Positions 1-58,725 are shown, counted from the first letter of the whole stretch. The stretch is 63,687 nt of DNA, filler included, from Dehalococcoidia bacterium (GCA_041494685.1; 3 parts of 3 records of this genome joined end to end with filler, not necessarily neighbours in it); one strand, 5' to 3'. Program-made: numbers and translations. The notes: generated by a model from the letters alone, not told the origin.

Positions 1-135
1 ACTGCCCTGAGCACGCTCAACCTGACGACCAACACGACCTTCACGCTCGAAGTGAAGCCGCCGTCCGGTTCGTACATGGTGATCCAGCGGACGACCCCGG
101 CGTCGATCAACAAGAGCGTCATCGACCTGAACTAG
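1..135 (+). CDS. arlB: Archaellin, C-terminal part (runs off window start)
   Basis: Frame 1 reads TALSTLNLTTNTTFTLEVKPPSGSYMVIQRTTPASINKSVIDLN*, nearly identical to the C-terminus of 1365..1952; not in ORF track. Confidence 0.9.
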   Translation, partial: TALSTLNLTTNTTFTLEVKPPSGSYMVIQRTTPASINKSVIDLN

Positions 136-167
136 GCACCCGACGCGCGAGGTTCACCGGACCACAC

Positions 168-196
168 AGAGGGGCGGCCGCCACGGCCGCCCCTCT
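168..196 (+). terminator. GC-rich hairpin after first archaellin
   Basis: AGAGGGGCGGCCG-CCA-CGGCCGCCCCTCT inverted repeat; no U-tract. Confidence 0.5.
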
Positions 197-353
197 CGCT
201 GTCCGTGGCGTTGCCGGAAACAGCCGTATAGGGGTTCCCGCCGGCGCGGCTGCGGCGCTCCCCGCCTGCGCAGGGACAGGGCCGGGTTCCGACGATCCGC
301 CATAGACCGCTGCGGGCGGCCGGACGAACACACCCAGGGATGGGGGAGCGTGT

Positions 354-944
354 GTGATGAATGGACTCATCTTCCTGTCGCGCCGTGCGCGCGACGAACG
401 GGGCATCACCGGCCTGGAGACCGCGATCGTGCTGATCGCCTTTGTAGTGGTGGCCGCGGTATTCGCGTTCGTCGTGCTCTCCACCGGCCTCTTCAGCTCC
501 GAACGGGGCAAGGAGACCATCTTCGCCGGCCTGGCGAAGACCCGTGGTTCGATGGAGCTGACGGGCAGCATAATGGCCACCTCCAACCAGACGAAGATCA
601 CGGCCGTTACGTTTGACCTGACGCTGACGGCCGGTGGCGCGCCGGTGAGTCTGGACTCGACGGCGACGGCGAACAAGACGATCATCAGCTTCCACGACGG
701 ACAGTACGACGTGAACAGCGTCAGCTACACGGCCACGGCGATCACCGGCAACGGTGACTCCGCGCTAGAAGCCGGCGAGCTGATGGAGATCACGCTGGAC
801 CTGACGACCGGCAACATGGCGACGGTGGCCGTGGGAGCGAACGCCGTGTTCACCATCGAGATCAAGCCGCCGCAGGGCTCGTACATGGTGATCCAGCGCA
901 CGACGCCGCCGTCGATCGCGCACACACTCATCAACCTGAACTAG
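354..944 (+). CDS. arlB: Archaellin
   Basis: Class III signal peptide RDERG/ITGLETAIVLIAFVVVAAVFAF; archaellin-type GDSALEAGE and FTIEIKPPQGS motifs. Confidence 0.92.
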   Translation: MMNGLIFLSRRARDERGITGLETAIVLIAFVVVAAVFAFVVLSTGLFSSERGKETIFAGLAKTRGSMELTGSIMATSNQTKITAVTFDLTLTAGGAPVSLDSTATANKTIISFHDGQYDVNSVSYTATAITGNGDSALEAGELMEITLDLTTGNMATVAVGANAVFTIEIKPPQGSYMVIQRTTPPSIAHTLINLN

Positions 945-1364
945 CCGCCTGCCCGGGGCGGCGCCCAGTTTTCGCGGGAACACCGGGTCGGACGGCGCGG
1001 CGTGCGACGCCATGACGTCCGCCGTACGCGGCGATTGGGCCGGGCCGAGCGGCGGAGGCGAAGAAGTGCGGCAGTTCCCCGATACGCGGGAAGGGCTCAG
1101 ATCACGAAGCTTCTCACGGTGCATGGATGTACCGCCAGGTAAACGGCAGGGATCGTCGCAACTCTGGTCCCCCGGCCAGCCCCGACGGGCGCAAAGGGGG
1201 GTGGCCGGGCAGCAAGGGAGTGCGCGACCAAGCCTGAGCGAACGAACGAACTAGACCCAGGCCAACGCGCAGCGCGAAGGAGGTGTCGGACCGCCACAAT
1301 AGAAGAGCCCCTGTTCTCCCAGAGAGATCTGGGGCACCCAGCGATTCACGAGGAGGAATACGCA

Positions 1365-1952
1365 ATGAAGCGAATCATGAGGTTCGCACGTCGCACCGCT
1401 GAGGAGCGGGGCATCACGGGTCTGGAAACCGCCATCGTTCTTATCGCGTTCGTCGTCGTCGCGGCGGTGTTCGCCTTCGTCGTCTTGAGCACCGGTCTCT
1501 TCAGCTCCGAGCGGGGCAAGGAGACGGTGTACGCGGGTCTCGCGAAGACCCGTGGCTCGATGGAGCTGACCGGCGGCGTCATCGCCAAGGGCAACACGAC
1601 GAAGCTGAACACCATCATCTTCGACCTGACGCTGGCCGCCGGCGGCGACCAGGTCAACCTGGACGGGGCGGGCGCGACCAACCGCACGGTGATCAGCTAC
1701 GCCGACACCAACATCAACGCAAACGACGTCTCCTACACGACGACCGTGATCACGGGCAACAGCGACAAGCTGCTGGAGCAGGGTGAGCTGTTCGAGATCA
1801 GCATCGACCTGACGCAGACCGCCCTGAGCGCGGTCACCCTGACGACCAACACGACCTTCACGCTCGAAGTGAAGCCGCCGTCCGGTTCGTACATGGTGAT
1901 CCAGCGGACGACGCCCGCATCGATCAACAAGAGCGTCATCGACCTGAACTAA
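1365..1952 (+). CDS. arlB: Archaellin
   Basis: EERG/ITGLETAIVLIAFVVVAAVFAF N-terminus, DKLLEQGE motif, SD GAGGAGG upstream. Confidence 0.93.
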   Translation: MKRIMRFARRTAEERGITGLETAIVLIAFVVVAAVFAFVVLSTGLFSSERGKETVYAGLAKTRGSMELTGGVIAKGNTTKLNTIIFDLTLAAGGDQVNLDGAGATNRTVISYADTNINANDVSYTTTVITGNSDKLLEQGELFEISIDLTQTALSAVTLTTNTTFTLEVKPPSGSYMVIQRTTPASINKSVIDLN

Positions 1953-1981
1953 CGGGAGCTCACGAAGAGCCCGAGAGAAGC

Positions 1982-2001
1982 GGGCCGCCCCCTGGGCGGC
2001 C
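1982..2001 (+). terminator. Hairpin between arlB and accessory genes
   Basis: GGGCCGCCC-CT-GGGCGGCCC-type inverted repeat; no U-tract. Confidence 0.4.
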
Positions 2002-2029
2002 CGCCTATCCCTCGAAAGGCAGGAGTGCC

Positions 2030-2734
2030 GTGGAACCGCAGCAGCTGGCAACAAAGGTCGCACAGCTCGAGTCACGAGTCGCCTCTCTTGAAGACGAAGG
2101 GAAGATCGTCAAGGGCGAGGTGAAGCAGATCCTGACCGAGATCCGCACCGCGATCCTCGTGCGGGACAACCCGTTCGAAGTTGACGGCATGCCTGCGCGT
2201 TCGCACGTGGCTTCGGTCGTCACGAACACCGCCACCACCGAGCGGATCTCCGCCGCGCCTGCGCCGGAGGCGGTGCAGCCCAAGCCGCAGCCGGCCCGCC
2301 CGCCAGAACCTGAGCCGGAGCCCGAACCCGAGCCCGAGATGGAGCTTGAGCCGGAACCCTACCCGGAGCCCGCCAAGGAGCCTGTCATGTTGAGGCCTCA
2401 ACACGCGCCGCCCGTACCGCCGCCGGCACCGGCGCCGGAACCGCAGCAGCCGCAGTGGACGCTGCTGACCATCGCCGGCCTGTCGGCCTGGGCGGAGGAA
2501 GCAATGCGGCGCCTGGGTTCGCTGCGACTCGAGATACTGTTGGACCTTTGCGAGACGGCAGGGCACCTGACGCCGGAAGCGCGCACAGCCCTGGCACGCG
2601 TGACGGAGCTGGATATCGCGGAGCCGGAGCACGCGCCTTCGACCAACGAGACAGTCGTCATCCTCCGGCAGCTGGATGCGCTGGTGAACGACGACGAGGA
2701 GTACGGCGCTCTCCGGATGCAGCGCCGGGTCTGA
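2030..2734 (+). CDS. Putative fused ArlC/D/E-like archaellum switch protein
   Basis: N-terminal coiled coil ending in NPF (ArlC-like), Pro/Glu linker, C-terminal W..EAMRRLG..RLEILLDLCETAGHL segment resembling ArlD/E; lies between arlB and arlG. Confidence 0.6.
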   Translation: MEPQQLATKVAQLESRVASLEDEGKIVKGEVKQILTEIRTAILVRDNPFEVDGMPARSHVASVVTNTATTERISAAPAPEAVQPKPQPARPPEPEPEPEPEPEMELEPEPYPEPAKEPVMLRPQHAPPVPPPAPAPEPQQPQWTLLTIAGLSAWAEEAMRRLGSLRLEILLDLCETAGHLTPEARTALARVTELDIAEPEHAPSTNETVVILRQLDALVNDDEEYGALRMQRRV

Positions 2735-2791
2735 GCGGCCGAAGACCTACACGCAGGAAGCACGCCCACCACACGCTGAAGGAGTGGCGTC

Positions 2792-3268
2792 ATCGATAAG
2801 GCAATCACGACCATCATGCTCACCATCGCGGCGATCGTCTCGATCATCGCGGTGGTCAACGCCGTCCTGCCGTCGGTGAGCCGCACGAGCGGCGCGCTGG
2901 TCGCGGCGTCCGGGGTGGTCGAGGACCGCATCTCAAGCCAGATCGACGTGATCCACGCGACGGGGCAGAACGGCAACCCGACCGCCGACGTGTGGGTGAA
3001 GAACATCGGTTCGTCGTCAATCGAGCCGATGTCGCGCGTGGACGTGTTCTTCGGCCCCAGCGGCAATTTCCAGCGGATCCCGCAGGGGACGGCCGGCTGT
3101 GCGGCGCCGTGCTGGGAGTACACGTTCGAGAACTCGACCCTCTGGGACGCGACGGCGACCCTGCACGTCATCATCCACGCAGCGTCGAACCTGGCGACGG
3201 GCACGACGTACTACGTCAAGGTTGTGACGCCGAACGGCATCACCGACTCCAAGTTCTTCACGGTATAG
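2792..3268 (+). CDS. arlG: Archaellum stator ArlG (probable ATC start at 2792; first ATG at 2816)
   Basis: N-terminal TM helix, SQIDVIHA, VWVKNIGS, VKVVTPNG motifs; SD AAGGAG 7 nt before ATC. Confidence 0.8.
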   Translation: MDKAITTIMLTIAAIVSIIAVVNAVLPSVSRTSGALVAASGVVEDRISSQIDVIHATGQNGNPTADVWVKNIGSSSIEPMSRVDVFFGPSGNFQRIPQGTAGCAAPCWEYTFENSTLWDATATLHVIIHAASNLATGTTYYVKVVTPNGITDSKFFTV

Positions 3269-3275
3269 ACGCGAC

Positions 3276-3788
3276 ATGGAGAACGGACTTCCCGCGATCT
3301 TGATTGCCGCCATCCTGATGCTGTCGACCGTGCTGATGGCGCGCGGCGGCTTCATGGGCGCGGACGCGATCGGCCAGTCGCTGCGGACGTCGGAGACGCG
3401 CTACGGTGAGCAGAACCGCACGGGCCTGACGGTCACGCAGACCGCGATCGATCCGACCGGCGCGAACATCACCATCACGGTGCGCAACGACGGCCAGACA
3501 CCGGTCGCGACCTTCGCGAACATGGACGTCGTGGTGCAGTACTTCGCCGCGGGCGGCACCCGCTACGACAAGTGGATCCCGTACACGTCCGGCCCGCTGG
3601 CGGCCGACACGTGGACCGTGGGCGCGTTCACGAACGACGTCTTCAATCCGGGCATCCTGGACACGGGCGAAAGCGTACAGATCCAGATCCGGGTGAACCC
3701 CGTCGTGGGGCCCGCGACGACGAACCTGGCGATCATCGGGACCGAGAAGGGCGTCACCGTGCGGACGTACTTCGCGGGCCCGCCATAG
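3276..3788 (+). CDS. arlF: Archaellum stator ArlF
   Basis: N-terminal TM helix, ITVRNDGQT, NPGILDTGES, IGTEKGV motifs; follows arlG. Confidence 0.8.
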   Translation: MENGLPAILIAAILMLSTVLMARGGFMGADAIGQSLRTSETRYGEQNRTGLTVTQTAIDPTGANITITVRNDGQTPVATFANMDVVVQYFAAGGTRYDKWIPYTSGPLAADTWTVGAFTNDVFNPGILDTGESVQIQIRVNPVVGPATTNLAIIGTEKGVTVRTYFAGPP

Positions 3789-3801
3789 GGGGCGGACTCG
3801 C

Positions 3802-5397
3802 ATGGCCATCTTCACCCGCTTTCTTCCCGGCGCAAAGGCGCCCCCGCGCAGCGACAACATCGAAGACGCCGCGAACTGGCAACGCCCGACGTCGCTGTTC
3901 CGCCCCGCGTCGACCGAATACGACCTGGTAGCGCAGCTGACGTATATGTCGGCGCTGGCCACGGCGAACGTCGGGCGCGAGAACCTGTTCCAGAAGACGG
4001 CCGAACTGGGTTACTCCACGTCCGGCTACTTCCACCGCGTGCACCTGGTGGCGCAGCGGCTGAACTACGACTACGCGCGCGCCTGCCAGTTGGTAGCAGA
4101 CGCGACAGAGAACGACACCGTACGCAGCCTGCTGCTCCGCTTCAGCAGTTCGCTCGCCTCCGGTGAGCCGGAGACGGTCTTCCTGGCACGTGAGACGGAG
4201 ATCACGCTGGAGCAGTACTCGCGCAAGTACGAGCGCGACCTGGAATCGCTCCAGAAGTGGACCGACGCGTACGTCGCGCTGATGGTGTCGGTGACGCTGG
4301 TGGTCGTCGTCTCGATGGTATCGATGATGATCTACAGCGTGGGGACGGTGTTCATCCTGGGTCTCGCGACGGTGATGATCGGCATCGCCGTGCTGGGCGA
4401 CTGGGTCATCTACCGGACGTCCCCGGTCGAACCGAAGACGCATAAGCGCGCTGAACGTTCGCGCACGCAGGACCAGATGTTCGCGGTGGCAAGAATCCTG
4501 CTGCCCGCGGGCGCGCTCCTGGGCGCGGTCGTCGGCATCGTGTTCAACATCGGCGCGGGCATGATCGCCGCGGGCATCATGGTGGCCCCGGTGGGCGTGA
4601 TGGCGTTCATGGACGACAGCAGGGTGGACCAGCAGGACCGCGACGTGTCGACGTTCCTGCGATCGCTCGGTTCGGTCGTCGGCGCGATCGGCACGACGGT
4701 GACAGAAGGCATGGAGCGGCTGAACCAGCGCTCGCTGGCCTCGCTGGAGCAGGGCGTGCGGCGGCTGCACGTGCGGCTGCGCTCCGGGATCCGGCCGGAC
4801 ATGTGCTGGGACCGTTTTATCTCGGAGACCGGCAGCGAGCTGGTGGACCGCTCCGTCAGCACGTTCTGGGACACGATCAAGCTGGGTGGCGACCCGGACG
4901 CGATCGGATACCTGTCGTCGCTGTTCGCCCTCAAGATCTCGCTGATGCGGGAGAACCGCAAGCTGGTCTCACAGACATTCATGTACCTGATGGTGCCACT
5001 GCACGCCGTGCTGATCGCCATCCTGCTCTTCGTCACCGAGGTCATGGTCGTCTTCGCGCAGCAACTGAACAACGTCCAGACACAGGCGCTGAGCAATACC
5101 GATCCGCAGGCGACCTCTGGGCTCGACGTCACGACCTCCCTGGCGTTCGCCTCGCCGAACATCGCGTTCATCCGGGGATTCGCGCTGGTGGTCGTGCTGG
5201 TGCTGACGGTCGTGGACACATGGGCGCCGCACTCGACCGCCGGCGGCCACCACCACAAGGTGTGGCTGTACGCGGCGATCATGCTGGTGCTCTCCGGGGT
5301 GGCGCTGATGTTTGTGCCGCACGTCGTGGGAGGCTTGTTCCACGGAGTGGCCGGCGACCCAACGAACAACACGCTGACCGCTCCGGCGCAGAGATAG
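3802..5397 (+). CDS. arlJ: Archaellum membrane platform protein ArlJ
   Basis: LTYMSALAT, LLRFSSSLASGEP..FL..E, FLRSLGS, FISETGSEL, LGGDP motifs; polytopic; 531 aa. Confidence 0.92.
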   Translation: MAIFTRFLPGAKAPPRSDNIEDAANWQRPTSLFRPASTEYDLVAQLTYMSALATANVGRENLFQKTAELGYSTSGYFHRVHLVAQRLNYDYARACQLVADATENDTVRSLLLRFSSSLASGEPETVFLARETEITLEQYSRKYERDLESLQKWTDAYVALMVSVTLVVVVSMVSMMIYSVGTVFILGLATVMIGIAVLGDWVIYRTSPVEPKTHKRAERSRTQDQMFAVARILLPAGALLGAVVGIVFNIGAGMIAAGIMVAPVGVMAFMDDSRVDQQDRDVSTFLRSLGSVVGAIGTTVTEGMERLNQRSLASLEQGVRRLHVRLRSGIRPDMCWDRFISETGSELVDRSVSTFWDTIKLGGDPDAIGYLSSLFALKISLMRENRKLVSQTFMYLMVPLHAVLIAILLFVTEVMVVFAQQLNNVQTQALSNTDPQATSGLDVTTSLAFASPNIAFIRGFALVVVLVLTVVDTWAPHSTAGGHHHKVWLYAAIMLVLSGVALMFVPHVVGGLFHGVAGDPTNNTLTAPAQR

Positions 5398-5409: not shown

Positions 5410-5823
5410 ATGCGAGGTATCTTTCACCGAGACGAGTCACACACCGGGCCGGAGATTCCGCGCGAGCAGATCGACGCGATGCTGCCTGCGTCGGTGCGCA
5501 GCCCGGAGAAGAACCGGTTCACGCCGCTGGGCAGCGACGCGCCCGCCGATACGGAGGACACGGACCTGGAGTTCCTGACGGCGATCGCGCGCGCGGCCGA
5601 AGCTGACGTATCGCGGACGCCGAAGCGGACGATCCGCCCCGCCCTGAAGCGAGTCACCATCGCGCCGGAAAACGACGGTCTCGATGCGTTCCGCGAGATC
5701 AAGCACGATCGCGAGAGGAAGACCACCGCTCCCACAATCCAGGTGGACGACGTCGACCTGATCGACCTGATGGAAGACCTGGCGACGATCGCCGCGGCGC
5801 TGCGCAAGCGCAGGGCCGCTTAG
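5410..5823 (+). CDS. Hypothetical cytoplasmic protein, probably co-transcribed with arlJ
   Basis: SD AGGAGGAG, 12 nt after arlJ stop, 137 aa. Confidence 0.7.
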   Translation: MRGIFHRDESHTGPEIPREQIDAMLPASVRSPEKNRFTPLGSDAPADTEDTDLEFLTAIARAAEADVSRTPKRTIRPALKRVTIAPENDGLDAFREIKHDRERKTTAPTIQVDDVDLIDLMEDLATIAAALRKRRAA

Positions 5824-5830
5824 CGTCACG

Positions 5831-6847
5831 ATGGCTCGCTGGGCAACGCTGCTGCTCGTCGGATCGATGGCCGTCTGGACGGCGCTGACCGCTGCCACCG
5901 GCTGGTACATGCTGCGCGGCGACAGCGCGCCGGCCGCGGCGGCGGCAGGGGCCGCGGTGGTATACGACGTGGCGGGGCCCATGACGCCTCACGCCGTCCA
6001 CTTGCTGACACGCGAGCAGGCCAACGCGACGCTACCGCAGCCGACGCCCGACACGGCGGTGCGCCAGCGCAACATGGGCGTCTCGCAGCCGGTGCCGCAT
6101 TACGCGCAGTCCGCTGACGGCATCAGCAACAAGGTACGCTCGGCAAACCCGGAGATCCCGGCGCAGCTGAAGTCGCCGCGCAGTGCCGTGGCGAAGAAGG
6201 GCGTCATCGTGCTCGACCCCGGGCACGGTCGCGGCGACCCGGGCGCGGTGCACTATCTGCCCGACGGCTCGGGCCGCTGGGACGAGATCGAGGCCGACTC
6301 CAACCTGAAGAACGCGCAACTGATCCGCGACAATCTCGTCGCCATGGGGTACGACGTGTACCTGACGCGGGAGAACGCGGGCGTGGGGCCCGGCGGGCCG
6401 CTTCCGCTGCAGTTCATCACGTCCGACCTGTACTCACGCGTCGCCCTGGCGAAGTCGGTGAACGCCGACCTCTTCCTCGCGCTCCACGGCAACGGCGCGA
6501 CCGTGCACTCGATCAGCGGCGCGGAGACGTGGTACTGCGGCAAGCAATCGAACGGTTCGCTGAACGAGAAGCTCGCGCGGATGGTGCAGCAGGCGATGAT
6601 GGACGGGCTGCACGAATATGGCTACTTCCCGCCGGACCGCGGCATCATGGAAGACGCCGAGCGCCACCACTCCGGTGACTTCTGCCAGTTCGTCGTCACA
6701 CGAGAGGCGCCCGTGCCGGCGGCGCTCATCGAGTTCCTGTTCCTGACGAACGATCAGGATGCGAAGGTGCTTGTCGACGACCGCTCGCACGTGATCCTGG
6801 CACGGCACGTCGCTGAGGCGATCGACGAGTTCATGCGACAACGGTAG
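5831..6847 (+). CDS. N-acetylmuramoyl-L-alanine amidase (Amidase_3) with N-terminal anchor
   Basis: IVLDPGHG..DPGA, E..N, ADLFLALHGN, PAALIEFLFLTN zinc-amidase motifs. Confidence 0.88.
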   Translation: MARWATLLLVGSMAVWTALTAATGWYMLRGDSAPAAAAAGAAVVYDVAGPMTPHAVHLLTREQANATLPQPTPDTAVRQRNMGVSQPVPHYAQSADGISNKVRSANPEIPAQLKSPRSAVAKKGVIVLDPGHGRGDPGAVHYLPDGSGRWDEIEADSNLKNAQLIRDNLVAMGYDVYLTRENAGVGPGGPLPLQFITSDLYSRVALAKSVNADLFLALHGNGATVHSISGAETWYCGKQSNGSLNEKLARMVQQAMMDGLHEYGYFPPDRGIMEDAERHHSGDFCQFVVTREAPVPAALIEFLFLTNDQDAKVLVDDRSHVILARHVAEAIDEFMRQR

Positions 6848-21583: not shown

Positions 21584-21682
21584 CTACCCCTTGTGCTTGC
21601 GTTGCCAGCGCGTCTTCTTGAGCATCTTGCGGTGCTTGTGCTTGCGCATCTTCTTGCGCCGCTTCTTCACCACCGAACTCAT
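21584..21682 (-). CDS. 30S ribosomal protein bS22 (AURKAIP1/COX24 domain), 32 aa
   Basis: MSSVVKKRRKKMRKHKHRKMLKKTRWQRKHKG, SD GAGGAGG; below ORF-track cutoff. Confidence 0.9.
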   Translation of the reverse strand: MSSVVKKRRKKMRKHKHRKMLKKTRWQRKHKG

Positions 21683-22001: not shown

Positions 22002-23564
22002 TTGACCGAATTCAGTAGCGGCGGAGTCGCAAACCCCGAGGTCGAGGCGGCCAGCGACGAAGTCTTCACCATGCAACACTGGCTGGACTCAGGCACGGAC
22101 TTCAAGACGCTCCGCCGAGGCGAAGTGGTCGAAGGCACGATCATGGGGATCCAGCGCGACGGCGTGATCGTCGATCTCGGATCAAAATCCGAGGGCGTGA
22201 TCCCGCCGCACGAGATGCACTCGATGGGCGCGGACCCGATGAGCAAGGTCGCGGTCGGCGAGAAGATCCTCGTGTACGTCATGCAGCCGGAGGCGGACCA
22301 GGGCCAGGTGGTGCTGTCCGTCGATCGCGCGCGCGGCGAGCGCGGCTGGCGCGTACTGCAGACGCGGTTCGAGGAGGGCGAGGCGTTCGACGGCGAGGTC
22401 ACCGGCTACAACAAGGGTGGCCTGCTGGTGAACGTCGAGGGCGTCTCCGCGTTCGTGCCGTTGTCGCAGGTCGTGGGCGTACGCCCGGATCAGGACGGCG
22501 AGGGCGGACTGGCGTCGGCCGTCGGCAAGCAGCTGCGGCTCAAGGTCATTGAGATCAACCGCCGGCGCAACCGCGTCATCCTGTCGGAGCGCGCGGCGCT
22601 CCAGGAGTGGCGCTCGCAGCAGAAGGACCGCCTGCTGGCGGAGTTGAAGGAAGGCGAAGTCCGCAAGGGCCGCGTCTCCAGCGTGCGCAGCTTCGGTGTG
22701 TTCATCGACCTCGGCGGCGCCGATGGCCTGGCGCACCTGAGCGAGGTCTCATGGGATCGCAACAAGTCGCCCGAGGAGATGTACCGCGTCGGCGATGAGG
22801 TCGACGTATACGTGATGAAGGTCGACCCGGAGACGAAGAAGATCGCGCTGTCGTTGCGCCGAGCGCAGCCGGAGCAGTGGGACCTGATCGTCGACAAGTA
22901 CCAGGTCGGCCGCGTCGTGGTCGGCATGGTCACCAAGCTCGTGACGTTCGGTGCGTTCGCGCGCATCGAGGGTCCCGTCGAGGGCCTGATCCACGTGTCC
23001 GAGCTGGTGGACCGCCGCATCGCGCACCCGAAGGAAGTGGTGCGCGAAGGCGACCTGCTGCCGCTGAAGATCGTCCGCATCGAGCGCGACCGGCACCGCC
23101 TGGGGCTGAGCCTTCGCGACGCCCGGGACGAGGGCACGCGCATGGGCTTCACGTTCAACGACACCGGCGAGGTGATCGCGGTGCCGGACGACCTGCGCAA
23201 GGAGTTCGAGGAGCGCGAGGGCGTGACGGTGCCGCCGCGCGAGCCGCGCGAAGAGAGCGAGACTCCGGCCGCCGTGACCGCCTTCGCCCCCGCCGCCGAC
23301 GGTGACGAGGCAGCCGCGGCCGCCGCGCCGCCGCCCCCCCCACCGCCCGCAGCGCCGCCTGTCGCGCAGGAGCCGGTGCGATCGGCGATGGCGGAGGCGT
23401 TCGCCGCGGCCTCGGCCGCGGCCGCCGGCACGACGGATGCTGTTCCGGCGGAGACCGTCGCCACGGATGTGGCAGCCGAAGAGAGCGTCGCCGATGCGCC
23501 GGCGGACGGGCCTGCCGAAGAGAGCATCGCCGATACATCGGCGGACGCGCCTGCCGAAGAGTAA
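22002..23564 (+). CDS. rpsA: 30S ribosomal protein S1 (4 S1 repeats plus acidic Ala/Pro tail)
   Basis: KSEGVIP, NKGGLLV, FGVFIDLGGADGLAHLSE, FGAFARIEG..EGLIHVSE; TTG start with SD. Confidence 0.93.
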   Translation: MTEFSSGGVANPEVEAASDEVFTMQHWLDSGTDFKTLRRGEVVEGTIMGIQRDGVIVDLGSKSEGVIPPHEMHSMGADPMSKVAVGEKILVYVMQPEADQGQVVLSVDRARGERGWRVLQTRFEEGEAFDGEVTGYNKGGLLVNVEGVSAFVPLSQVVGVRPDQDGEGGLASAVGKQLRLKVIEINRRRNRVILSERAALQEWRSQQKDRLLAELKEGEVRKGRVSSVRSFGVFIDLGGADGLAHLSEVSWDRNKSPEEMYRVGDEVDVYVMKVDPETKKIALSLRRAQPEQWDLIVDKYQVGRVVVGMVTKLVTFGAFARIEGPVEGLIHVSELVDRRIAHPKEVVREGDLLPLKIVRIERDRHRLGLSLRDARDEGTRMGFTFNDTGEVIAVPDDLRKEFEEREGVTVPPREPREESETPAAVTAFAPAADGDEAAAAAAPPPPPPPAAPPVAQEPVRSAMAEAFAAASAAAAGTTDAVPAETVATDVAAEESVADAPADGPAEESIADTSADAPAEE

Positions 23565-23775: not shown

Positions 23776-24214
23776 ATGATGGCTGACAGATTCGACAAGT
23801 TCACAGAGCGCGCACGCCGGGTCCTGACGCTGGCCCAGGAAGAGGCCCAGCGGTTCAACCACAACTACATCGGTACGGAGCACCTGCTGCTGGGCCTCGT
23901 CCGCGAGGGCGACGGCGTCGCCGCCAAAGTGCTGGCCAACCTGGGCGTTGAGCTCAACAAGGTCCGCTCGGCGGTCGAGTTCATCATCGGCCGGGGCGAC
24001 CGCGCCGTCCTCGGCGAGATCGGCCTGACCCCGCGCGCCAAGAAGGTCATCGAGCTGGCCGTCGACGAGGCGCGCCGGCTCAACCACCACTACATCGGCA
24101 CCGAGCACCTGCTTCTGGGTCTCGTCCGCGAGGGCGAAGGCATCGCGGCGGGCGTGCTGGAGAGCCTGGGCGTCAACCTCGAGCGCGTCCGCGCCGAGAC
24201 GACGCGCATCCTCT
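23776..24214 (+). CDS. clpC: ClpC-type ATPase, N-terminal Clp repeats (cut by assembly gap)
   Basis: DKFTERARRVLTLAQEEA..NHNYIGTEHLLLGL, repeated twice. Confidence 0.85.
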
Positions 24215-24314
24215 NNNNNNNNNNNNNNNNNNNNNNNNNNNNNNNNNNNNNNNNNNNNTTAATTAATTAANNNNNNNNNNNNNNNNNNNNNNNNNNNNNN
24301 NNNNNNNNNNNNNN
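24215..24314. other. Artificial contig spacer
   Basis: N runs flanking TTAATTAATTAA (stops in all six frames). Confidence 0.97.
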
Positions 24315-48037: not shown

Positions 48038-48137
48038 NNNNNNNNNNNNNNNNNNNNNNNNNNNNNNNNNNNNNNNNNNNNTTAATTAATTAANNNNNNN
48101 NNNNNNNNNNNNNNNNNNNNNNNNNNNNNNNNNNNNN
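48038..48137. other. Artificial contig spacer
   Basis: N runs with TTAATTAATTAA. Confidence 0.97.
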
Positions 48138-56286: not shown

Positions 56287-57375
56287 ATGAAGGTGAACGA
56301 GATCCCGACGCCGGCCCTGATCGTCGATGTGCGGGCGATGGAGCGGAACATCGAGCGGATGGCGGCGTACTTCGCCGGGCGGACGTGCAAGCTGCGGCCG
56401 CACTTCAAGGCGCACAAGACGCCGGCCATCGCCAGGCGGCAGCTCGCGGCGGGCTCGTGCACCGGGCTCACGTGCGCCACGGTAGGCGAGGCGGAGGTCG
56501 TGTTGCGCGAGCGCCTGACGGACGAGATCCTGATCGCGAACCAGGTCGTCGGCCCGGGCAAGGCGGAGCGCGTCGCGAAGATCGCCGGACAGGCGAGCGT
56601 CATCGTCGCGGTCGATTCGGAGTACGGCCTGCGAGACATCGCGCTGGCGGCACGGATGGCGGGCACGCAGGTGGGCGTGCTGGTGGACGTGGGTGTGGGG
56701 CTGCCGCGCTGCGGCATCGCGCCGGGCGAGCCGGCGGTGGCGCTGGCGCGGCTGGTGCAGGAGACCGAGGGCGTCGTTCTGCGCGGCGTCATGGGCTACG
56801 AGGGCCACGTGGTCGGCATCGAGGACCGCGCTGACCGCGAGGAGAAGACGCAGAAGGCGATGGAGCGGCTGCTCCGCACAGCGACGATGGTGCGCGAGGC
56901 GGGGCTGCGCTGCGACATCGTCAGCGGCGGCGGCACCGGCACGTACGACATCACCGGCGCGATGGAGGGGATCACCGAGGTCCAGGCGGGGTCGTACGTG
57001 CTGATGGACACGGCGTACGCGAAGCTCGACATCCCGTTCGCGCAGGCGTTCAGCGTGCTGGGCACGGTGCTGAGCCGGCCGCGTCCTGAGCAGTGCGCGG
57101 CGGACAACGGGCACAAGGCCTGCTCCGTCGATCACGGCAACCCGGCCGTGAAGGGCGTCGCGGGCGCGACGGTGCTCTTCCTCAGCGACGAGCACGCGAC
57201 GATCGGGCTGCCGGCGGACTGCGCGCTCGCGGTCGGCGACCGCATCGAACTGTGGCCCTCGCACATCGACCCGACGATCAACCTGCACGATGCGATGTAC
57301 GCGGTGGAGGGCGACGACGTGGTGGAGGTGTGGCCGATCGCCGCGCGCGGCTACCCGGAGCAGCGGGCGCGCTGA
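56287..57375 (+). CDS. DSD1/D-threonine aldolase-like PLP enzyme
   Basis: PTPALIVD, LRPHFKAHK, MGYEGH, GGGTGT, QAGSYVLMD, SDEH, HIDPT.NLHD. Confidence 0.88.
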   Translation: MKVNEIPTPALIVDVRAMERNIERMAAYFAGRTCKLRPHFKAHKTPAIARRQLAAGSCTGLTCATVGEAEVVLRERLTDEILIANQVVGPGKAERVAKIAGQASVIVAVDSEYGLRDIALAARMAGTQVGVLVDVGVGLPRCGIAPGEPAVALARLVQETEGVVLRGVMGYEGHVVGIEDRADREEKTQKAMERLLRTATMVREAGLRCDIVSGGGTGTYDITGAMEGITEVQAGSYVLMDTAYAKLDIPFAQAFSVLGTVLSRPRPEQCAADNGHKACSVDHGNPAVKGVAGATVLFLSDEHATIGLPADCALAVGDRIELWPSHIDPTINLHDAMYAVEGDDVVEVWPIAARGYPEQRAR

Positions 57376-57379
57376 CGGG

Positions 57380-57820
57380 TCAGCCCGCCTCGCAGTGACG
57401 CTTGATGGCGCGCAGCGACGCGCCGACCGTAGCCTTCGTGGCCCGGCCGATGTAGGCGCGCTCGATCAGCGCGCCGAGCAGCGGCCACGGCACGCGCACG
57501 AGCATCGCGGCGGTGAGCCGGGTGCCTTCGCCCAGCGGTTGCAGCGTGTAGGTCTCGTCGAAGCGGAAGGGGCCGACAGCAAGCAGAGAGCGCAGGCGTT
57601 GCGACGCAACGACCTCCCGTGGACGATCGTGCAGGAGACGGAAGGGGCCGTTGGCGTAGCGCCAGCGGACGTGCTGGCCGGGCTGCGGATAGTCGGGCGG
57701 GGCGTCGAGCGCGCCGGCGACGCCGGTATCCCATTGCACGACCTCAGCGGGGTCGCAGAGCGCGCGCCAGACGCGCGCGGGCGGCGCGGCGATCTCGACC
57801 GTCACATCGAAGGCGTACAC
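57380..57820 (-). CDS. SRPBCC family protein
   Basis: VEIAAPPARVWRAL.DP..W; C-terminal LRAIKRHCE. Confidence 0.75.
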   Translation of the reverse strand: MYAFDVTVEIAAPPARVWRALCDPAEVVQWDTGVAGALDAPPDYPQPGQHVRWRYANGPFRLLHDRPREVVASQRLRSLLAVGPFRFDETYTLQPLGEGTRLTAAMLVRVPWPLLGALIERAYIGRATKATVGASLRAIKRHCEAG

Positions 57821-57825
57821 GCCGC

Positions 57826-58725
57826 TCAGTCTCCCGGCGCGAGCAGCCGCTCGAGCAGCGCGGCGTCGCGCGAGAAGAGTCCGGCGGCGGGCAGGCGGCG
57901 CAGCAGCTCCGCCCAGCGGGGGTCGGCGCGCACCGCCTGCGCGATGAGCGCGCGCGCCTCGGCGGGCTGCGTGCGGGCGAGGCTGAGTCCGAGCCAGAAC
58001 GCGATCTCCACGTTGTCCGGCGCCAGCTCGCGCGCGGCGCGGATGTGGGGCATCGCCTCGTCGATCTTGCCGGCGGTGAGCAGCTCTTCGCCGCGGCCCT
58101 GCGCGTCGTAGGCGCGGCGCAGCGTGAGCAGACGGCGCAGCTCGACGAGCGGCTCCGTGTGGTCTTCGACGCGCAGGTCGACCGGCCGATCGAGCCACGG
58201 GCGGCGGGTGTTCGTGCTGTTGACGACGACGATCGCCGCGGACTGGCGGCCGCGGAGATCGCCGCCCTCGGCCTCGGCGGCATCGAGCGCGGCGAGCATA
58301 CGGTGAGCGAGATCGCCGGATTCGGCGTCGTAGGCGCGGAGCATGGCGTCCGGGACGGTGTCGCGCTCCATCATGTTGGCCTGCACGCTGACGGCTGCGC
58401 CGATGCGGTGCCCGGCGTGGGCGATGCAGCGGTCGCCGGTGTGCGCGGCGACGTTGCCGACGGCGTCGATCATCGCCACCTGGCGCAGCGCCGCGCCGGG
58501 GTCGGCCGTTAGCAGCGCCCGCAGCGCGTCGGGCGCGGTCATGCCGCTGCGCATCAGGTCGAGGCCGCGCGGGCCGTAGGCGGGCTCGACGATCGACTGG
58601 GTCGCCACGGCGCCGACGCCCGTTTCGAGCCAGGGCACGACGGGGCCGACGGAGAAGTAGTGCGACTGGACGGCGACGCCCATCTGCCCGGTGACAGCGT
58701 CGCGCGCGACGATGGAGTAGGTCAC
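57826..58725 (-). CDS. DUF1028 (Ntn-hydrolase-like) protein with TPR-like tail
   Basis: TYSIVARD, GAVATQS, GGDLRGRQSAA, DLRVEDH..P..EL.RL. Confidence 0.85.
   Translation of the reverse strand: MTYSIVARDAVTGQMGVAVQSHYFSVGPVVPWLETGVGAVATQSIVEPAYGPRGLDLMRSGMTAPDALRALLTADPGAALRQVAMIDAVGNVAAHTGDRCIAHAGHRIGAAVSVQANMMERDTVPDAMLRAYDAESGDLAHRMLAALDAAEAEGGDLRGRQSAAIVVVNSTNTRRPWLDRPVDLRVEDHTEPLVELRRLLTLRRAYDAQGRGEELLTAGKIDEAMPHIRAARELAPDNVEIAFWLGLSLARTQPAEARALIAQAVRADPRWAELLRRLPAAGLFSRDAALLERLLAPGD

Follow-up and report, generated by a model that had tools for sequence, protein, structure and literature searches.

The question raised by this locus is whether an archaellum (archaeal flagellum) can persist in a bacterium as a working machine after the genes of its motor have left the operon. 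The locus lies at the start of a 63,687-base window (the whole stretch of DNA analysed) from a Dehalococcoidia bacterium, in which three contigs are joined by N runs at 24215-24314 and 48038-48137; therefore, only positions 1-24214 (contig C51) are physically linked to the archaellum cluster. The genome of the window (G000) is a bin of 87 contigs and 3.29 Mb, 97.6% complete, and the names of its relatives indicate that the host probably belongs to the order DSTF01, family JACRBR01. We consider, with a probability of roughly 0.8, that C51 encodes filament, stator and platform of a bacterial archaellum, that its motor genes arlH and arlI (arlHI) have been relocated, and that the whole set is selectively maintained and most likely working.

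Archaellum genes on C51 and motor genes elsewhere

The genes of the cluster were assigned by profile searches, by comparison with solved structures and, for the accessory gene X, by position and distant relatives:

1-135, + strand: 3' end of arlB, the last 44 codons and the stop in frame 1, cut by the start of C51
354-944, + strand: arlB archaellin, 196 amino acids (aa), class III signal peptide (PF01917, 86.3 bits; TIGR02537)
1365-1952, + strand: arlB archaellin, 195 aa (PF01917, 96.4 bits; TIGR02537)
2030-2734, + strand: X, putative ArlCDE-like accessory protein, 234 aa
2816-3268, + strand: arlG, stator/anchor component, 150 aa (NF052591, E 9.5e-8; PF01917, 31.6 bits; FlaG 5tug, E 1.3e-10)
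3276-3788, + strand: arlF, stator/anchor component, 170 aa, weak assignment (NF052590, E 3.8e-5; PF22201, E 0.0016; FlaF 4p94, E 0.014)
3802-5397, + strand: arlJ, polytopic membrane platform, 531 aa (NF004703, E 8.4e-137, 456.7 bits, residues 38-513)

By PF01917 (cut-off 29.5 bits) and TIGR02537, the archaellin N-terminal domain, C51 holds one archaellin 3' end and two whole archaellin genes, which bears out the count of at least three in an earlier note on this DNA. Over its last 37 residues, the 1-135 product does not differ from the C-terminal end of the archaellin encoded at 1365-1952. Both whole archaellins (354-944 and 1365-1952) carry the motif ERG/ITGLETAIVLIAFVVVAAVFAFVVL; the ERG/ITGLE motif of archaellins is presumably the signal peptide cleavage site. 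The ArlG-, ArlF- and ArlJ-like genes named in the same note were also recovered by profile search, the ArlF match being weak, and the position of arlF after arlG fits the arl2 order.

On C51, arlF is followed directly by arlJ, with neither arlH nor arlI between them. Archaellum operons usually carry both genes at this place. A search of the whole genome found them at C19:34639-37143, flanked by an acetate-CoA ligase subunit gene and thiolase genes, with 34.6 kb and 16.2 kb of this 53-kb contig on either side:

C19, arlH: 240 aa (NF004723, 263.6 bits against a cut-off of 194)
C19, arlI: 590 aa (NF058587, 636 bits against a cut-off of 550)

Both ArlH and ArlI have intact Walker A and B motifs (in ArlI, GETASGKTT for Walker A and IIIGE for the Walker B region). 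The archaellum core, i.e., archaellins, ArlJ, ArlI and ArlH, is present in G000, and the layout that had been suspected to be new is one in which arlHI are missing from the locus and encoded on C19. The published survey of Chloroflexota archaella (PMC12488501, Sivabalasarma et al. 2025; cited here and below from parts of the article and its source data) defines archaellum loci by co-localisation, and the arl core of G000 does not stand in a single locus in this sense.

It should be noted that machines of the same superfamily have to be told apart here: the Tad (Flp) pilus of bacteria likewise belongs to the type IV filament superfamily and has archaeal ancestry. The best solved relative of the archaellin is the bacterial archaellin of Litorilinea aerophila (9i5h, the same sequence as 9sie and 9sii; E 6.6e-41), archaeal archaellins coming next. 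ArlH matched FlaH (4yds, E 3.7e-32; also 4wia). A Tad or type IV pilus was rejected, as ArlI matched FlaI (4ii7, 7e-127) far better than CpaF (1.5e-43), the match of ArlJ to the TadB/C-type T2SSF domain PF00482 (E 0.025) was under threshold, and the filament genes encode archaellins rather than Flp pilins. The earlier note had named grouping with Tad or type IV pilins and with TadB/C as evidence that would speak against an archaellum; the matches go to archaellum families. Further T2SSE-type ATPases of G000, at C9:25174-26010 and C10:14280-15137 (~230-240 bits), probably belong to Tad or type IV pili, which fits the Tad clusters listed for the family in PMC12488501. FlhA and bacterial flagellin were not found in the G000 genome (97.6% complete).

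The remaining features of C51 bear on whether the locus is native to the bacterium:

5410-5823, + strand: small open reading frame (ORF), 137 aa, 12 nucleotides (nt) past arlJ, no family match
5831-6847, + strand: N-acetylmuramoyl-L-alanine amidase (Amidase_3), 338 aa, 7 nt past the small ORF (PF01520, 113 bits)
21584-21682, - strand: bS22 (NF047430, 57.7 bits against a cut-off of 34)
22002-23564: rpsA
23833-24213: N-terminal Clp_N repeats of clpC, the gene being cut by the end of C51

Genes for ribokinase and KpsF and further bacterial genes also lie on this contig. The GC content of the cluster is 0.655-0.668, against 0.67-0.70 in flanking genes, and the GC content at third codon positions (GC3) is 0.82-0.95 in arl genes, against 0.82-0.93 in their neighbours. 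Both statements made before, that archaellum genes share a contig with bacterial ones (Amidase_3, bS22, rpsA and the start of clpC, all within 1-24214) and that composition matches (in GC and in GC3), are thus correct. The fragmentation of the bin and the start of C51 inside an archaellin gene could be read as signs of an archaeal fragment misjoined to a bacterial contig, or of contamination; we regard such an artefact as hardly conceivable. Composition and GC3 are uniform, rpsA, bS22, clpC and the amidase are on C51, and the order arlJ-small ORF-amidase recurs on the contigs of 18 of the 19 closest relatives (the 19th ends before the amidase) and, in a relaxed form, in two more; these are independent contigs and include a closed 3.6-Mb chromosome. 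A chimeric join between 5.4 kb and the bacterial genes, which had been put forward as a possible objection, was therefore rejected. The C51 locus is a genuine, native archaellum gene set of a published Chloroflexota lineage.

Layouts among relatives

We scanned species-representative genomes for ArlJ and obtained 23 loci, all from Dehalococcoidia or Chloroflexota metagenome-assembled genomes, which were compared with the window proteins by tblastn. Three layouts were observed:

Far-split or no arlHI, 19 loci: ArlJ identity 76-89%; arlB (1-5 copies)-X-G-F-J-small ORF-amidase where the contig reaches; arlHI absent within a flank of up to 10 kb, ten of the 19 contigs having short flanks
Near-inverted, L037 and L039: ArlJ identity 73-75%; arlH-arlI inverted ~2.4 kb upstream of the first arlB
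Canonical, L038 and L040: ArlJ identity 47-52%; B-X-G-F-H-I-J

The separation is best seen in the closed chromosome of 3,617,538 bp on which L041 lies, in which ArlJ is encoded at 1,630,826-1,632,415 and ArlI at 56,920-58,680, i.e., 1.57 Mb apart. Across 93 genomes of the order, ArlJ was detected in 68 (E<=1e-30) and ArlI in 66 (E<=1e-100); in the family of the window (f1; 36 genomes including G000), the corresponding fractions were 31/36 and 32/36. The distances between the two genes were distributed as follows, the rest of the 93 genomes having one gene or neither, and many of these being incomplete:

f1, 36 genomes: both genes in 28; on different contigs in 21 (distance proven only where flanks are long), 1,572,146 bp apart in 1, ~6.2-6.4 kb apart on opposite strands in 4, adjacent in 2
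f2-f5, 57 genomes: both genes in 33; adjacent in 33, all other layouts 0

Thus, arlI and arlJ are far apart or on different contigs in 22 of the 28 f1 genomes, compared to 0/33 in the four sister families. A second locus, with the genes adjacent, is present on another contig in one of the four near-inverted genomes, and an extra ArlJ fragment lies elsewhere in one of the 33 adjacent genomes. In the ArlJ tree, which has 24 rows (the window and the 23 loci, L036 being represented by its longer fragment only), the 19 far-split or arlHI-less rows form one clade (support 88/99), the near-inverted loci being basal to it and the canonical loci outside; the root is a midpoint root only, so that the order of events rests on outgroup comparison. 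The layouts suggest a series in which arlHI would have passed from the canonical B-X-G-F-H-I-J arrangement to an inverted position ~6 kb upstream, and from there to a far one, and the simplest history that we infer has arlHI excised and inverted once and then relocated once. Three far-split relatives share the genes that follow arlHI, a small ORF and a BbsA-like gene.

The spread of ArlJ over 68 of 93 genomes of the order, with divergence down to 46% identity, and the native composition of the arl genes agree with the old, ameliorated transfer that the earlier note had proposed. The phylogeny of ArlIJ in PMC12488501 indicates a transfer from Euryarchaeota, namely the Methanotecta group.

As a separate observation, second, divergent (~50% identity) copies of ArlI, or of ArlI and ArlJ, are encoded on other contigs of G024 (C48), G045 (C2) and G071 (C36); these could represent a second archaellum-like locus or contamination of the bins.

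Selection, loss and the expected working of the split set

The ratio of nonsynonymous to synonymous substitution rates (dN/dS) was calculated between G000 and the closed relative, i.e., for two far-split genomes (dS 0.48-0.83). The values were 0.13 for ArlJ, 0.15 for ArlI, 0.18 for X, 0.18 for ArlG, 0.22 for ArlF and 0.25 for ArlB; those of the amidase and the small ORF were 0.40 and 0.81, respectively. The range of 0.13-0.25 is indicative of purifying selection on the arl genes, and all arl ORFs are intact in G000. Such selection makes it most likely that the split genes still yield a working archaellum; judged from its genes, the set is probably functional.

Several points weigh against this reading, in addition to the limits on distance and rooting given above. 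The gap between arlHI and arlJ in G000 is an estimate from contig geometry (at least ~35 kb), and one genome with the two genes on different contigs (G012, locus L029) groups with the near-inverted type in the ArlJ tree and may belong to it. The end of C33 holds one whole arlB and the 5' part of another (106 codons), and C33 most likely continues into C51, which would give at least four tandem arlB genes; this join is inferred, the assembly break being due to near-identical arlB copies, and arlHI were not found in the last 18 kb of C33. ArlF is identified weakly by both profile and structure matches, and X itself has no Pfam match.

The losses observed in relatives raise the alternative that the split is a form of decay, i.e., that the system ceased to function once arlHI left the operon and the C51 locus is a remnant heading for loss. 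Neither arlI nor ArlJ nor an archaellin is found in G030 (95% complete), and G031 (97% complete, same genus as G030) keeps arlI (85% identity) and one archaellin; ArlJ was not found in G031, where there is elsewhere just an archaellin fragment of 25 residues. The halves of the split system thus appear to have been lost independently. One relative (G005/G008; L036, L046) has ArlJ, X, ArlH and ArlI genes with frameshifts or TGA stops; however, this is a long-read bin that is 51% complete, so that sequencing errors are the likely cause, decay being possible as well. Against decay as the general state stand the intact arl ORFs of G000, the low dN/dS between two genomes that are both far-split, and the persistence of this layout across many genera. 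We therefore consider decay unlikely and prefer the reading of a maintained machine with relocated motor genes.

As a further alternative, the locus might encode, instead of an archaellum for motility, an adhesion pilus of archaeal type, i.e., a type IV filament that does not rotate. The curated NCBI equivalog cut-offs are missed by ArlJ (456.7 against 570 bits) and by ArlG and ArlF (both far under 110 bits), which makes them divergent members of their families, and rotation is a prediction from the gene families. In addition, no match to the archaeal adaptor CheF (PF04283) was found in the G000 genome, and the coupling of the archaellum to chemotaxis is therefore unexplained; genes of CheW/CheA type are present on C2 and C1. 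Conversely, the genome encodes the archaellum-specific ArlH together with candidates for ArlG and, more weakly, ArlF and with the putative ArlCDE-like protein, ArlI scores above the equivalog cut-off set for archaellum motors, and the closest solved relative of the archaellin is the filament of L. aerophila, a swimming bacterium (PMC12488501). An adhesion pilus is accordingly a very improbable explanation, and the motility archaellum is retained in what follows.

The working of such a machine can be proposed from the gene families and by analogy with L. aerophila, in which swimming was shown and the filament structure solved (PMC12488501). Pre-archaellins, from at least four tandem arlB genes and one orphan, would be cut after the ERG motif by the single A24 prepilin peptidase; the hexameric ATPase ArlI would assemble the archaellins on the ArlJ platform and then turn the filament with ATP, with ArlH modulating ArlI. 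ArlF and ArlG would anchor the motor in the envelope, and the ArlCDE-like X would serve in the cytoplasm as an accessory or switch component, ArlCDE being the link to the switch in archaella. Abundant arlB transcripts with read-through into X-G-F-J may result from the GC-rich hairpins that follow arlB genes.

Published census, accessory genes and regulators

That archaella occur in Chloroflexota is not new, as the earlier note had recognised: PMC12488501 reports archaellum loci in 243 of 3,780 Chloroflexota genomes. In its sheet 1, Archaeal-T4P equals 1 in 4 of the 24 genomes of o__DSTF01;f__JACRBR01, distributed as follows:

no genus name: 3 of 4 positive
g__JACRBR01: 1 of 12 positive
g__JADMII01: 0 of 8 positive

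The sole positive g__JACRBR01 genome is listed in PMC12488501 with the order ATPase, ArlH, gap, pilin, pilin, arCOG02396, gap, arCOG01824, platform, which is the near-inverted layout.

The species representative of JADMII01 allows the two approaches to be compared. Locus L025 carries the whole-genome shotgun (WGS) prefix JADMII01, which, by GTDB naming habit, we take to be assembly GCA_015478665.1; it has the order arlB-X-G-F-J-amidase, and no arlHI were seen within 10 kb on either side. For GCA_015478665.1, the source data of PMC12488501 used here give Tad clusters only. It is very probable that far-split genomes were scored negative in that survey since their ATPase lies outside the cluster. 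A census that demands co-localisation probably undercounts the family of the window: 4 of 24 f__JACRBR01 genomes are positive in PMC12488501, compared to 31/36 for ArlJ and 32/36 for ArlI in the present analysis.

The archaella of L. aerophila and of the SAR202 bacterium 'Ca. Lucifugimonas marina' share the gene families and the arl2-type order arlB-accessory-arlG-arlF with the locus described here, and the Chloroflexota archaellum of PMC12488501 also has its prepilin peptidase outside the locus and no bacterial flagellum; in contrast, arlHI are unlinked here and an amidase follows arlJ. The PilN/PilO-LysM genes of the published system did not turn up here, no search having been aimed at them. 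Archaeal arl2-type operons, for which Archaeoglobus fulgidus and Sulfolobus acidocaldarius are named in PMC12488501, likewise have G before F, the ATPase, the platform and the KaiC-like ArlH. The present case differs from them in its bacterial host with peptidoglycan enzymes, in detached arlHI, in that CheF was not found in the genome, and in the NarL-type pair upstream. Archaellum components that are dispersed and therefore invisible to an ordered MacSyFinder search have been described in Prometheoarchaeati (Asgard) and Nanobdellati (DPANN) (PMC13705601); the hosts there are archaea, and no Chloroflexota case is reported in the parts of that paper used here. No description of a split archaellum in Chloroflexota was found in the literature searched, which included a 2026 chemosensory preprint (passages of it; its supplements may bear on the point). 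As far as this literature goes, two things are new: arlHI stand apart from arlJ on a family-wide scale, and surveys based on gene clusters are blind to systems of this layout. The archaellum was known as a machine before, and the notion of it is unchanged; what is of interest is that the ATPase and the platform of a type IV filament machine, which normally stand together, are megabases apart in a bacterium in which all parts are under purifying selection.

In the source data of PMC12488501, arCOG02396 stands between arlB and arlG. X, which occupies that slot here, consists of an N-terminal coiled coil, a variable proline-rich linker and a conserved C-terminal helical domain, and was detected by tblastn in the same slot in 22 of the 23 relative loci, i.e., in all loci that reach that far. 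A representative library contains 954 relatives of X at E<=0.001. PF04659 (Arch_fla_DE) had no match in the G000 genome; it was matched by 2 of 128 scanned X relatives (best E 2.1e-6), a second scan of 40 of the 127 relatives giving no match, and an Atlas lead for X (0.86) points to an archaeal cluster with PF04659 in 20% of its members. A profile search of X against solved structures gave nothing meaningful (best E 0.18), and a word-based homologue search gave, among the 120 matches listed, close relatives with no Pfam domain except one PF05887. Taken together, these data suggest, with moderate confidence, that X is the ArlCDE-like component mentioned in PMC12488501.

Behind arlJ, the small ORF found no family in Pfam and NCBIfam profile searches; by tblastn it is present in 19 of the 23 relative loci at 34-51% identity, so that its position is conserved while its sequence evolves fast and is barely constrained (dN/dS 0.81). 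Of the 23 relative loci, 20 have the amidase gene after arlJ; it was not seen in the two canonical-layout loci. The amidase is possibly co-transcribed with arlJ, and it may open the peptidoglycan for the machine, a role that would be analogous to, yet different from, that proposed for the LysM-PilO/PilN proteins of L. aerophila; its place could equally be family-level synteny.

Further candidate parts are dispersed over the genome:

C33:32686-33438 (L008:15687-16439), - strand: NarL/LuxR-type response regulator, divergent from the first arlB
C33:29589-32570 (L008:12590-15571), - strand: large histidine kinase
C27:10478-11134 (L009:10478-11134), + strand: orphan archaellin between rplU-rpmA-rpmE and ftsH (PF01917, 86 bits)
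C20:37037-37342: the single Peptidase_A24 gene of G000 (PF01478, 48 bits), with no NCBIfam match

The response regulator upstream of arlB is kept at the same place in nine relatives, with 70-90% identity. The divergent NarL-type pair may be a candidate regulator of the filament module, and could equally reflect family-level synteny. The conserved amidase and the two-component genes are testable candidates for the fitting of an archaeal machine to a bacterial envelope and to bacterial regulation.

A more far-reaching interpretation, which we hold only tentatively and consider rather doubtful, is that the family represents an advanced stage in the domestication of an archaeal machine. The operon would have been dismantled (ATPases 1.57 Mb away, one archaellin gene left alone amid those for ribosomal proteins), the filament module placed under NarL-type control, an amidase recruited behind arlJ for passage through the wall, and chemotactic input obtained without CheF. 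If this were true, archaellated bacteria would be clearly commoner than the published census indicates, and the family would be a natural experiment in the integration of a foreign nanomachine.

Two hairpins accompany the arlB genes on C51:

168-196, + strand: perfect 13-bp GC-rich hairpin with a 3-nt loop and no T tract, 33 nt past the arlB stop
1975-2009, + strand: hairpin whose 16-nt arms are 88% complementary, separating the last arlB from the accessory genes

A consensus scan found no sigma-70-like promoter, and terminator matches were at chance level; the hairpin at 168-196 may be terminator-like or transcript-stabilising. Finally, a GGDEF diguanylate cyclase of 660 aa is encoded at C19:28345-30327 on the - strand (L018:2346-4328), ~4.3 kb upstream of arlH; a link between the gene and motility through cyclic di-GMP is conceivable.

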